From Chiloscyllium plagiosum (taxonomy: Eukaryota), in NCBI RefSeq assembly GCF_004010195.1, contig NC_057751.1, forward strand, positions 11,584,578 through 11,648,577: DNA of 64,000 nt. Direction: 5' to 3'. A program made the position numbers and the translations under genes. This document shows, piece by piece, positions 3,887-62,930 of this stretch. The notes under the pieces are model-generated. The model was not told the DNA's origin. It did not search any database and worked only from the letters and a program-made list of their open reading frames with translations. The number at the start of each line of letters is the position of its first letter. The first letter of the stretch is position 1.

Positions 3887-4079
3887 TGATCAAAAGGCAC
3901 ACAACACCAGGTTGAAGTCCAAAAGGTTTATTTGAATCACAAGCTTTTTGAGCTTTGCCCCTTTGTCAGGTAAGAGGGGCCGCACTCTGAAAGCTTGTAA
4001 TTTCAAATAAATCTGTTGGACCATAAGCTGGTGTTGTGTGACTCTTCACCACCCTATTCTAACAGCAGCACCTCCACAT
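3887..4079 (+). mobile_element. Penelope-like fold-back element, family B (degenerate hammerhead)
   Basis: Inverted arms CACACAACACCAGGTT...GTTTATTTGAA / TTCAAATAAATCTGTTGG...CTGGTGTTGTGTG; family tail GCACCTCCACATC; TSD CATTGT(G/T)TGGAGG at 3874-3886 and 4080-4092. Confidence 0.75.
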
Positions 4080-4271
4080 CATTGTTTGGAGGAGGAATGG
4101 GTATGCACAAGACACAGATGGATTAACCATGAGTTCTTTACCTTGGTGTACCAGCCACCATTTTAGCCGTATTGTGTTTCTTTTAGTTGTCCTTTGGTCA
4201 CTTAGACTGAAGCAGAATTGTTTTTGAATTCTCGCATTATTTGAGAAGCATGGGAAGCATTATTTGGGAAC

Positions 4272-4510
4272 ACCGGCACCTCCAAGTCACTCACCATTCT
4301 GACTTGGAAATATATTGGCCGTTACTTCACTGTCACTGTGTCAGAATCCTGGAATTCCTTCCCTAAGGGCATTGTGGCCAACCCACAGCAGGTGGATTGT
4401 AGCAGTTCAAGAAGGCAGCCCACAACCACCTTCTCTCGGGGCAACTAGAGATGGGCAATAAATACTGCCCAGCAAGCTATGCCCAAATCATACAGCTGAA
4501 TAAAAAAAAG
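4272..4510 (+). mobile_element. LINE 3' end (CR1/L2 group, 'GGGCAATAAA' tail family)
   Basis: CTGACTTGGAAATATAT...TCCTGGAATTCCTTCCCTAA...TTCAAGAAGGCAGC...GATGGGCAATAAAT...A-rich end; same family at 61720-61925. Confidence 0.7.
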
Positions 4511-4974
4511 TTTGTACAATCCTCAGCAAATGTAACAGGAAGCCACATGGGGTCCCATTTTAAACCCTTCTACTTTAGTGACCAATCAAGATCTAAGGAG
4601 GACAGTTGGCCACACGACTCATCTGCTCAGCAAACTTGAGCCTGCTTAAAGTCATTGTCGAGCAGTTTTTGTGTGGGCCTCTTATGAGGGCATGGTTCAT
4701 GGTTCACCCTCCCCTTCCCCAATTAAGTTCATTATGAGGCACAATTGACTTTTATTGTTGGAGCAACTGAATGCATGTGTTAATTCACCGCATGTTTATC
4801 GTATCTTAAGTAGCAATCATAGTTTAGTTTACTCTTACTCTGGTTTCTGAAATTTGAAGGTCTACCTTCCATTTCAGAGACTTAAGCGCATGATACTAGG
4901 CAAATAGTTAAGTGCAAGAACTTGGTTCAGCACTGTTGCAAGTGGAATTTTTCAGATGTGACATTAAACTTGTG

Positions 4975-5405
4975 AGGCTAACAGGTAAGATAAATTTGGC
5001 TGGGGTTGTTTTCTTGGACAAGAGGGGGCTGAAGGTATACTTAATTGAGTTGTACAAGGTGATGAGGGGCCAGGATACTGTGAAGTGGGAAGGGCCTACT
5101 TTCCATAGCAGAAAGTAGGGATCAGTGAGTAGGGAGCTTGAATTTGACGTGTTTGTTGGAAAGACTATAGGAAAGATGATCAGAGGGTTTTTTTTCACCC
5201 TGAAAGTGTTTGGGTTCTGAAACCACTGTCTAAAAGGGGAGTCAGGGCCAACATCTTCCCTCATTCAAGAGGCAACTGGATCGGGAGTTCAAGGATAGCC
5301 TTGGATAGCCAATGACAGCAGTGGCTGGACCAAATGCTCAAAAGTGGGATGCTGGACAACTGTGCAGCTCATTTCACTGTCAAGACAAACATGATGGACC
5401 AATTG
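4975..5405 (+). mobile_element. Old CR1 LINE 3' fragment
   Basis: Degenerate ORF2 C-terminus (RGLKVYLIELYKVMRG ~ RRLRGDLIEVYKIMRG). Confidence 0.7.
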
Positions 5406-5451
5406 CTGTGTACTTTCTAAAGGAAGACCTAATCTGCCCACTGTTTGAATT

Positions 5452-59072: not shown

Positions 59073-60504
59073 GTGAATTCGGAGTCCTGTTCAGAAAGAT
59101 TTAAGTGAGCAGTGCTCAGTCACCTGGTCAGCCAAATGCAAATTTTGAATTCAATTAACAGGAAATTGAAAGCTGCTCCTAAATCAGGCAGAATGTCTGC
59201 TACTTGAGTCGAGATGAAACTACGTCTGAGTGTGCTCATGCCACTTCTGAGCATGAGTAACTCAGTATTTCAGCTGTTGGGGGGTAGAATTTGGGTTTCC
59301 TTGTTGAAGCAACACCTTTTATGATCTGATCTTAACATTGAAGTCAAACACATAGAAAACCAAAGCCTAAGCTTTCTCTCATGAACTCACAGTTCCTGCC
59401 TAAATCATGTTTCTAACCAAAAGCAGCTCAGTTGTTTGGTATAATGGGTTGCCTTAATGAAAGTATATTTGATTGTGGAACGACATTGACTTCAACAGGG
59501 TAGATGCTGCAATCTTGACACTTGTGTAGTTCACTACATTACTGGAGAAGCTCCAAAATCTTAAACCAATGCCTGGAGCGAGTCAAAAATTAACAACGTG
59601 TTAGCATCGCTGAAAATCAATGGGCTATTGGACACAGAATTATTCAAATTTACAAGCGAGCTATTTGATGTTGAGTGGTAGAAGAGTTCATTTCATGAAA
59701 TCTTACAAAAAATTATTGACCTTCAGATTACAAACCACATTTTCCTCAACAGTTTTTATCACAGTTTAAAAACATGTAGCATATTTGAAGGACGTCTGAT
59801 TTCAATGCATATGATCAGATCAATGTTAATGCAGCAGGGTACAATATCTGCATCTATTGGAGTTGTAGCAATCTCAAAACTATCCATGCCATGCAAACCT
59901 GTTTTGGCAGAGAGAAACAACATAAAATGGAGAAAGTTTGCTAAACAGTTCACTTTGCTGTAAACATGTAATTAAAACTGGCTCCACCGATACATAAATG
60001 TGCATTTACATTACAATTCACAAAACTGTAACCAGGTTAATGTAAAGAATACACTCCGATAGATGTCAATTGTTTACATTGATGCAGTGTAGTCACTAAC
60101 TTAATTTAGCAGTCTGGGGCCAAAATGTTGTGGAAAATCTTTACTTTACCACACTTTGATGTTGTGCTCTCAGACTTTCTTGTAACATGTTGAATTCAGG
60201 CCCTGACATTATTCATACCAAAGACAGATCTTTAACCACAAGTACATCAGTTTAGTGCTACAACCTTAAAGAACTCTCTCCAGACAGACAGAAACCAATT
60301 TTTGGAAGACAAGACAGAAAACTGAACTGCCAGGTGGATGTCTATAAACTTTAAGAAGTCATTGTATAAAGATTTTACCTATTATACTTCATTAGAAACC
60401 TGGTGTTAGCACAGATGTTTATACTTACAACACAAATGGGGGCGTACACATAATTCAACACACACACAAGTTTCCACTTGTTAATCTAGCCATTTTGTCT
60501 TTAA

Positions 60505-60900
60505 TTCACATTGAGGATATAGGTGTCACTAGCTAGGCCAGCATTCATTGCCCATCCCTATTTGCCCTTGAGATGTGAGCTGCCTTCCTAATCCACTGCG
60601 GTCCTTGGGGTGTAGTTACAGACACAGTGCTGTGAGGGAGGTTGTTCTGTGATTTTCACCCAGCAACAGTGAAGCAATATTAATGTAGTTTCAAGTCAGA
60701 ATAGTGTGTCACTTGGAGGGGAACTTGCAGGTAGTGGGGTTACCATTGCATATGCTGCCCTGTGCTTTTCAGTGCTTGGGGTTGCAGGTTTGGAATTGGA
60801 TGTTGAAAAAGCCTGGATGAGGTGCATCTTGCCAATGGTACACATGATGCTGCCTGGCGTGCTGTGTTCTTCCAGTCTCCTGCTTGTTTACAATGGTACA
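60505..60900 (-). mobile_element. LINE 3' end ('GGGCAATAAA' tail family)
   Basis: GGCCAGCATTCATTGCCCATCCCTATTTGCCCTTGAG...TCAAGTCAGAAT. Confidence 0.7.
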
Positions 60901-61719
60901 CACTGCAGGTTGGTGGTAGAGAGAATGAATGTTTCCTGTTCAGAGGTCCATCTTCAAACGGCTCAGCATAGGTGTTTTTGGTAACTTACCTGCTGCCGTT
61001 CAGCTGCAGACAGATTTCATGGTCAAATAAGAATGTGCCCATACTCAAGAATCTCAGCAATGTTGCACAGCATACATGCAGCAGACACACCCAGCACAAT
61101 CACACCCAAAGACTACACTCGTCTATCTGCACATATCACATCTCAAATCACACATCCGTTATGCAGACCACAATCTTCGTACATCCCTGTGTAATGGCAT
61201 CCAAACCTCTGTCTGATTAAGACAATTACTCGAGTGGATTCTTGTGATGACCTGCTCTGACTTCAAGGACACACAAAGGAAACATAAAAGGGCCAGAAAA
61301 AAGACCCAGGCACTCATTTGCGCTGGACTCCTTTTGTTGGCTTTGTTGATTTGACAGCTCAATCACTGCACATGTAATGGTTCTTTTTAAGACAGTTGCA
61401 TTAAAGCAGCAAAATACATTAAAAATTCTTCCAGTGGTTATGCCCCAAACCTTGCAGTTCTCTGTTTGCAATATATTTGCTTTGGAAACCTATTTAACTT
61501 GGACATTAGTAAAATGTACCTAAATCAGTAGTCATATAGGCAGATAAAATGCAAAGTTGCCATTGATGAAATAGTTTCTCATTTTTCCTAAATGCTACTT
61601 GCACTCATGACAGTTATTTTTAAATCTTGAAGAGGGTGTAAAAAATATCCAGCTCTGAACCCTCAAGTGTTTCAGACAGGCCACTCCCCCTGGCAGAAAT
61701 TGTTGCAAGTGCTTCTTAT

Positions 61720-61925
61720 AGTCACACCATCTGAACTTGGAAATGTATTGCTGCTGAAATCCTGGGACTCCCTCCCAAACAGCACTTTCGGCATCCCTCT
61801 TACCCTAAGGACTGTGCGAGTTCAAGAAGACAGTTCTCCATCATCATTTCAAGCGCAACTAAGGGTGGGAAACAAATGCTGCATTGGCCAGTGAGACCCA
61901 CATCCTGTGAACAATTTAAAATAAA
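61720..61925 (+). mobile_element. LINE 3' end ('GGGCAATAAA' tail family)
   Basis: AACTTGGAAATG...AAATCCTGGGACTCCCTCCC...GTTCAAGAAGACAG...CCCACATCC. Confidence 0.65.
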
Positions 61926-62021
61926 TATGGTAAAGGAAGCTGATTTTACCCTGCTGGCTCTGAGCAGGAAGTACCCTTTATACATCACCGCTGTGTTTAA
62001 CTTCCACCTTCAACTTTGGAA

Positions 62022-62930
62022 GAGCATAAGAGCCTGAGATATAGGTCTACCATTCAACAGGGTTGAAGAATGTGGTGCTGGAAAAGCACAGCCGGTCAGG
62101 CAGCATCCGATGAGCAGGTGTTTAATCAGATTCCTGATGAAGAGCTCATGCTTGAAACGTCGAATTTCCTGCTCCACGGATGCTGCCTGACCAGCTGTGC
62201 TTTTCCAGCACCACAGTCTTTGAATGTGATCTCCAGCATCTGCAGTCCTTACTTTCTCCTATCATTCAACAGGGTCATGGCTGAACTGAAATTCCCTACG
62301 TCCACTTTCATGCCCTTTTCCACATAACCCCGGATTCCCGACTGACCAAGAATCTATCTATCTCAGTCTTAAGTATACCCAAGGACTCTGTCCACCCAGC
62401 TCTCTGTGGCAAGGATTTCCCAAGACTCATAATCCTCGGGGCAGAGAAATTTCTCCTCATCTCAGCGTGACATTGGCATCTCTTTATTCTGAAACTATGC
62501 TCTCTAGTTCTAGACTCTCCCATGAGGGCAAACATTCTCTCAGCTTTTACCCTGTCAAGCCCCTAAAAATCTATATATTTCAATGAGATCACCTCTTATT
62601 CTTATTGAACTCCAGCCAGTAGAGTCCCAACTTATTTAGCCTTTGTTCATGAGACAATCTCTCCATGCCAGCGATCATCCTTGTGACCCCACTCTGAACT
62701 GCCTCCAATAAAATTATATTTTCTTAAACAAGAGGACCAAAACTGTTCACAACACTCCAGATGTGGTGTCACCAGCACCTTGTACAGTTGCAGCATGACC
62801 TCCCTACTCTTACACTCCAACCCCCTTGAATTAAGAGCCAACATTCTATTAGCCTTCCTGATTATCTGCTGCTCCTGTGTGGGAGCTTTGTCCACCCAAG
62901 TTCCTCTCTGCCGTTTCTCTCCATTTATAT
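62022..62930 (-). mobile_element. CR1 LINE 3' fragment interrupted by a Penelope-like hairpin
   Basis: GLECKSREVMLQLYKVLVTPHLECC; GESRTREHSFRIK..EMRRNF. Confidence 0.88.
62064..62262 (+). mobile_element. Penelope-like mini-element, family C, fold-back with hammerhead
   Basis: CTGATGA-A-GAGC-TCAT-GCTT-GAAA-CGTC at ~62134-62161; inverted arms; exact 13-bp TSD CATTCAACAGGGT at 62051-62063 and 62263-62275. Confidence 0.88.

Follow-up and report, generated by a model that had tools for sequence, protein, structure and literature searches.

The window, a 64,000-nucleotide stretch of Chiloscyllium plagiosum DNA, contains a scatter of short inserts, most of them with a hammerhead motif, and the question they raise is what kind of element produced them. 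A preliminary description counted eight but listed nine, with three unrelated body sequences. Nine is the correct number, at 102-438 bp each, and to these we add a tenth of 46 bp (60845) that had been missed. Five of the nine belong to family A (8719, 21199, 23549, 26223, 62064), three to family B (3887, 43093, 55464) and one to family C (6998). The families are indeed mutually unalignable: against 1000 shuffles, p = 0.15-1.0 in all six whole-arm comparisons and 0.55-0.78 in all three comparisons downstream of the cut site. The inserts do not look like a novel mobile RNA but like the cut-off tail ends typical of Penelope-like elements (PLE), with the small self-cutting motif of that class; they are a further example of a kind of element that is already known.

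Table 1. Inserts in the window, with their hammerheads and target-site duplications (TSDs)
Feature	Position	Strand	Details
Family B fold-back insert, 193 bp	3887..4079		inverted tail-less arm, then forward arm with tail; hammerheads damaged
TSD of 3887	3874-3886 / 4080-4092		13 bp, 1 mismatch
Family C fold-back insert, 438 bp	6998..7435		arms 95% identical; central loop 8 nt; tail 7407-7435
TSD of 6998	6985-6997 / 7436-7448		13 bp exact
Minimal hammerhead, 6998 forward arm (C3 to H17)	7330..7363	+	
33-codon frame, 6998 forward arm	ATG at 7336	+	runs to 3' end of insert
Minimal hammerhead, 6998 inverted arm	7039..7072	-	
Family A single arm, tail-less	8719..8817	-	34 nt short of 23549; no TSD found
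Hammerhead of 8719	C3 at 8812	-	best preserved of set; helix I 6 bp
Family A fold-back insert	21199..21345		inverted arm ends within helix II; forward arm without hammerhead
TSD of 21199	21186-21198 / 21346-21358		13 bp, 2 mismatches
Family A single arm with tail, 135 bp	23549..23683	-	starts 6 nt before C3 (23677)
TSD of 23549	23535-23548 / 23684-23697		14 bp exact
Family A insert	26223..26361	+	short tail piece, tail-less body (C3 at 26234), target copy, 27-nt tail, in that order
Target of 26223	26209, 26321, 26362		14 bp, three copies
Family B fold-back insert, 278 bp	43093..43370		long inverted arm with hammerhead (C3 at 43174); forward arm misses ~190 nt internally
TSD of 43093	43079-43092 / 43371-43384		14 bp exact
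Family B fold-back insert, 425 bp	55464..55888		hammerheads 55545 (-) and 55771 (+), core changes in both
TSD of 55464	55451-55463 / 55889-55901		13 bp exact
Tenth insert, 46 bp, related to family A	60845..60890	+	without hammerhead
TSD of 60845	60833-60844 / 60891-60902		12 bp exact; 13 with 1 mismatch
Family A fold-back insert, 198 bp	62064..62261		inverted arm short; forward arm with hammerhead (C3 at 62134) and tail
TSD of 62064	62050-62063 / 62262-62275		14 bp, 13 exact; 17 possible with 1 mismatch

Eight of the nine inserts are bounded by a TSD of 13 bp (3887, 6998, 21199, 55464) or 14 bp (23549, 26223, 43093, 62064). The preliminary description had reported as much, including the exception at 8719, where no plausibly placed partner is found with up to three mismatches allowed. 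When random points in the window were taken instead and a repeat of the 13-mer was sought 60-620 nt downstream, an exact one turned up in 2 of 4743 trials and one with at most one mismatch in 13 of 4743. Example TSDs of Adineta PLEs, in contrast, measure 8, 9 and 10 bp (PMC3846280). In the literature we searched, with Repbase, Dfam and most subscription papers outside its scope, neither PLE TSDs of 13-14 bp nor minimal hammerheads from sharks are tabulated.

Inside the duplications, six of the nine inserts have a fold-back layout, in which an inverted, 5'-truncated copy lies next to the forward one. The tail is kept by 7/7 forward or solo arms, while all six inverted arms end about 30-44 nt before the 3' end; tail-less ends number eight, each about 30-44 nt short. 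Copies of the same family vary in length and in where their centre lies, and poly(A) is absent from all nine, so that variable 5' truncation, a TSD and a 3' end without poly(A) occur in combination. Endonuclease-positive PLEs insert as units with a pLTR, a tail of 30-40 nt (34-37 bp in PMC2377424) and an adjacent inverted 5'-truncated copy (Arkhipova 2013 PMC3846280; Craig 2021 PMC8557442). Head-to-head arms, a tail on one arm, 5' truncation, a TSD and the lack of poly(A) are common to those units and ours, although the present inserts are far shorter (46-438 bp) and have no ORF. Truncated PLEs are also known to leave single motifs and opposite-strand hammerhead pairs 100-700 bp apart (PMC4209133).

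A hammerhead motif is reached by 12 of the 16 arm segments, and half of these 12 retain the full core bases and a palindromic tetramer (8719, 23549, 62064 forward, 43093 inverted and both arms of 6998). Elsewhere, the tetramer reads ACAT (26223), the core has changed (both arms of 55464 and of 3887, where the register was read by eye) or the CUGA box is missing (21199). Compared with the consensus for metazoan PLEs (Cervera & De la Pena 2014, PMC4209133), these are minimal type I hammerheads in a terminal repeat, with the same CUGANGA box, extra base before helix II, GAAA, short helix I and palindromic positions 15-16 in CG and GC versions; they differ in the G-U that replaces G10.1-C11.1 in most copies and in the core damage seen in half of them. 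On visual comparison, family B is similar to the turtle motif (GC tetramer, then CCAAAUAAA), family C to that of Clonorchis and family A to that of Acropora Neptune (PMC4209133); we noticed no cartilaginous fish among the 56 motifs of that study. An Rfam search returned no hammerhead among its 11 weak matches at E<=10. An energy model preferred non-hammerhead folds in all six arms, as monomer and as homodimer, but such models say little on catalysis. A further hammerhead-like site at 58254 was left out: it fails to align to family A (p=0.05) and lacks a TSD.

Motifs, tails and TSDs together bear out the earlier PLE-type reading (minimal type I hammerheads, palindromic helix III, inverted 3' ends, long TSDs). 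Its proposal that the helix III tetramer co-varies between families fares less well. Both ACGT and AGCT are present among the inserts, but the contrast lies between unrelated families and both versions had already been published (PMC4209133, Fig. S3). Likewise, the A said to follow the tetramer in family B is there at H17 of 43093 and of the 55464 forward arm, whereas 3887 has T.

Were the RNAs cut by their own hammerheads before being copied, as the term ribozyme-processed implied? The cleavage site is read through in 12 of the 16 arm segments, none starts exactly there (the nearest begins at +7) and each of the nine inserts has at least one arm that crosses it. We infer that the templates were uncleaved (or re-ligated), and ribozyme processing is not borne out. 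A ligated circular template would also cross the cut site when copied.

The explanation we favour, with a probability of roughly 0.7, is that three distinct endonuclease-positive Penelope-like families left behind 5'-truncated, dead-on-arrival copies of their end module, the pseudo-LTR hammerhead with its tail. The inserts are TSD-bounded and variably truncated, carry a tail on the forward arm only, have a tail-less inverted arm and cross the cut site. How such copies might arise is suggested by PAc (Poseidon from Anolis carolinensis; Frangieh 2024, PMC11167929), the one PLE studied in vitro, whose dominant template is unprocessed RNA. By analogy, the RT/GIY-YIG protein would nick both target strands 13-14 nt apart; reverse transcription would begin at either of two internal RNA positions separated by 30-44 nt, yielding a tail end or a tail-less end; the template would be left uncut by its own hammerhead; and cDNA synthesis would halt after 30-250 nt. 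The second arm may be primed at the opposite nick, or the first cDNA may fold back to make it. Fold-back is favoured at 6998 because both arms end at the same base around an 8-nt loop. At 26223 both start sites were used at one target. We dropped a longer inverted than forward arm at 43093 and 21199 as support for independent priming, since the forward arm of 43093 begins well upstream and is interrupted by an internal gap. In the present copies the hammerhead would be a passenger.

The likeness to PAc would extend to two internal start sites one tail apart, both strands nicked and extended, and an uncleaved template, although no protein was recovered here. It also extends to family C, where an ATG at the start of stem II is followed by the cut 28 nt on and the 3' end at +100 (26 and +111-118 in PAc). 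PAc prefers AT-rich targets; the TSDs here, at 64% AT, exceed the window's 58% only slightly.

No partner enzyme was encountered in the window, as the preliminary description had said of PLE ORFs. A Pfam scan of 277 stop-free frames of at least 62 aa (a tandem array and one short stretch left out) and two short family C frames gave no GIY-YIG match, a scan that would miss shorter, broken PLE pieces, and three RVT_1 matches, all inside repeats distant from the inserts, which we take to be CR1-like. For the family C frames, protein, HMMER, Atlas and Pfam searches found no relative; the lone HMMER match, P0003, is spurious (a 4040-aa repeat, 8/27 identities), and the 33-codon frame is short enough for chance (about 0.15 by estimate). 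Scans of public viral and metagenome DNA gave no match to these elements, four prokaryote matches to a loose pattern were taken as chance, and the paper supplements searched contained no shark-like PLE sequence.

Mobilisation of non-coding RNAs in trans by one shared machinery, the earlier inference, is not established by the inserts. Copy length and centre vary as 5' truncation predicts, and with three tails that do not align, three partner enzymes seem likelier than one. Random truncation, however, does not predict everything. Four of seven family A arms start between 3 and 6 nt before C3 (post hoc simulated P of at most 0.006), and the two long family B forward arms share one start base (about -131), which counts against the explanation we favour. 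The family A cluster is compatible with a defined short template: family A, and short B copies, could be non-autonomous units of about 130 nt that a PLE protein copies in trans and that have their own fixed 5' end immediately ahead of the hammerhead; this is the earlier idea minus cleavage. Trans mobilisation by pLTRs and non-autonomous PLEs have been published (PMC3846280, PMC8557442), and helices I and II of family A each show one two-sided change among four copies. We nevertheless consider such units unlikely. With 86% of cells paired and two two-sided changes, the family A helices score at a level that 68 of 500 shuffles also reach, which is not significant, and copies of B and C extend at least 85-135 nt upstream, by differing lengths. 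Pol III A and B boxes are absent from all nine inserts on both strands with one mismatch allowed (consensus from PMC8969392), leaving the units without such a promoter and speaking against a SINE identity. The same cluster would also arise by run-off at the 5' end of an autonomous mRNA, and short copies starting just before the hammerhead may be such products.

Much less probable are non-LTR retrozymes, that is, hammerhead-cleaved, circularised RNAs reverse-transcribed by PLE proteins. Re-ligation would restore the cut site, and animal retrozymes, one chondrichthyan included, have been proposed as PLE derivatives (bioRxiv 10.64898/2026.07.22.740005); like the present inserts they are short, ORF-less and PLE-related, with a type I hammerhead. 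Retrozymes are, however, defined by head-to-tail repeats. In the window, no insert of the nine has a second same-strand unit and none of six tandem arrays (9000-64000) belongs to families A-C; inverted arms, a tail and a TSD are seen instead, and in B and C the sequence upstream does not continue round into the tail. MITEs or foldback DNA transposons with an incidental hammerhead look can be set aside almost entirely: six of nine inserts are palindromic and TSD-flanked, but the inverted repeats are not terminal (a 30-44 nt tail lies outside one arm), centres vary between copies, 23549 has a single arm flanked by an exact 14-bp TSD and the hammerhead anatomy matches the published consensus.

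Within the framework of truncated PLE end modules, a more specific scheme is conceivable, albeit doubtful. The three unrelated families might share a 13-14 nt stagger set by a dimeric GIY-YIG/RT, its two active sites priming at the two start sites. Most short copies might then be run-off cDNAs primed on the 5' (not 3') repeat of an uncleaved RNA that starts 3-6 nt before the hammerhead, or on a free non-autonomous 130-nt RNA with that start, and 26223, where the target is recopied exactly at the tail boundary, might be a frozen intermediate of two-site priming. If dimeric two-site priming is true, this genome would be a large natural data set for the second-strand step of PLEs. The TSD lengths, tail boundaries and fold-back centres of many copies, once tabulated, could tell which of twin priming and fold-back makes the inverted arm, and whether the hammerhead has any role in transposition.

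All nine inserts of the preliminary description lie where it placed them, and they fall into families A (n=5), B (n=3) and C (n=1), which, as sequence alignment bears out, cannot be aligned with one another outside the hammerhead boxes. Target duplications (TSDs) of 13-14 bp flank eight of the nine, as had been stated: five are exact, that of 62064 (inserts are named by their start) carries 13 exact bases, and those of 3887 and 21199 contain one and two mismatches, respectively. A TSD was looked for at the exception, 8719, and not found. An exact 13-mer repeat at such spacing arose in 2 of 4743 random-point trials. 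A profile search recovered three additional family A-like pieces in the window.

Additional copies, hammerhead-like boxes and surrounding repeats in the window
Feature	Position (strand)	Details
Additional family A-like insert	60845-60890	own TSD, 12-13 bp
Older family A-related copy, decayed hammerhead	25291-25400 (+)	nhmmer E 1e-5; TSD sought, none convincing
Older family A-related copy, decayed hammerhead	56446-56526 (+)	nhmmer E 0.0025; TSD sought, none convincing
Hammerhead-like boxes	58190-58254 (-)	no family A alignment and no TSD; may be due to chance or a very ancient copy
CR1-like 3' end	55302-56031	contains 55464; repeat recurs at 9181, 26596, 44492, 52411
Repeat containing 62064		matches 24858-24918
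Two facing CR1-like LINE fragments	9181-14342	long inverted repeat, arms 87-97%
RVT_1 frames within 9181-14342	10104-10466 (-), 12533-13516 (+)	Pfam
Minisatellite	17669-19703	27-bp unit, 75 copies, 82% matches
LTR-retrotransposon-type RNase H domain fragment	14279-14557 (-)	PF17917, E 3e-11
Near-perfect small hairpin	6702-6753	~45 nt, 250 bp before 6998; weak Rfam matches; outside families A-C

Six inserts are arranged head-to-head. The tail, that is, the last ~30-44 nt at the family's 3' end, is kept in 7/7 forward or solo arms; an end ~30-44 nt short of the family 3' end is shared by the six inverted arms, by 8719 (a lone arm) and by the 26223 body. A tail plus a neighbouring truncated copy in inverted orientation is the layout of Penelope-like elements (PLEs) described in PMC8557442, PMC3846280, PMC2377424 and PMC8969392. 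For PAc, the Poseidon PLE of Anolis carolinensis, Frangieh 2024 (PMC11167929) describes a tail equal to the distance separating two internal RT start sites, both target strands cut and extended, normal insertion by hammerhead mutants, and no RNA-seq reads ending at the cut site. Family C shares the PAc geometry given there, with an ATG where stem II begins and the cut 28 nt on. Its 3' end falls at +100 and its tail-less end at +71. Upstream, a 38-codon frame terminates within stem II and may resemble the Poseidon C-terminus; neither this nor the ATG frame found a confirming match in protein, HMMER or Pfam searches.

The reported lack of a PLE ORF holds for the frames scanned in the window: GIY-YIG is absent from these 279 frames (Pfam), and the three RVT_1 matches, in repeats we take to be CR1-like, all lie away from the inserts. 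Public DNA collections (viral, metagenome, prokaryote) gave no usable match. Because these searches yielded no RT or GIY-YIG ORF joined to the inserts, their probable PLE membership rests on four architectural features, each of which was found. A single GIY-YIG/RT machinery shared by all three families, as previously proposed, is unlikely given that the aligned tails have no sequence in common.

Twelve of 16 arm segments reach the hammerhead motif, six of them with all core bases and the palindromic tetramer, which is indeed ACGT in families A and C and AGCT in family B. In its anatomy the motif conforms to the min-HHR consensus published by Cervera & De la Pena 2014 (PMC4209133), a study that already includes CG and GC tetramers (Fig. 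S3) and reports hammerhead pairs on opposite strands 100-700 bp apart, along with single motifs from truncated PLEs. The suggested Rfam hammerhead search left the motif undetected. Helix II pairs in 16/16 cells across four family A copies, and family A shows one two-sided change each in helix I and helix II, but 68 of 500 shuffles reach the same two-sided changes, so covariation within these helices is not established. In a transcript of 6998, one arm is predicted to base-pair with the other (-366 kcal/mol, z -35), and the hammerhead would therefore be buried. We infer that a head-to-head insert, with one sense copy per strand, cannot form a hammerhead dimer in cis.

Four of seven family A arms start 3-6 nt before C3, the core start (simulated P 0.006 or less in a test chosen post hoc, with starts of reference arms read off separately). 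The 3887 inverted arm starts at -2, and the 43093 and 55464 forward arms share an identical upstream starting base. Such clustering goes beyond random truncation and could reflect RNA 5' ends or sites prone to fold-back. As the hammerhead is followed by the RT start sites at a distance of ~100 nt, an element mRNA primed on its 5' repeat would run off at its start, giving fixed short copies in cis; copies indistinguishable from these would be expected from a free non-autonomous RNA.

Had the templates been ribozyme-processed RNAs, as first proposed, reverse transcription of a cleaved RNA from the tail should have left inserts beginning at H17+1, the first base after the cut. However, none of the 16 segments begins there and 12 run past the cut site (starts for the remaining four: +7, +30, +39 and +73); the templates were therefore uncleaved or re-ligated circles. 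Circular templates are argued against by the lack of head-to-tail units, the hallmark of non-LTR retrozymes (bioRxiv 10.64898/2026.07.22.740005): such units are absent from the inserts and none of these families is among the six tandem arrays in 9000-64000.

At 26223 the 14-bp target is present three times (26209-26375), its second copy falling precisely on the tail boundary, and the left junction repeats an 8-13 nt tail piece bearing a variant base specific to this copy. This shows that tail and body are pieces primed separately at the same target, whether through template jumps within a single event or through two insertions.

The inserts are real and of a kind already known, namely ends of PLEs in truncated and fold-back form; what may be unrecorded so far is how 26223 is built and that three families have a 13-14 bp stagger.
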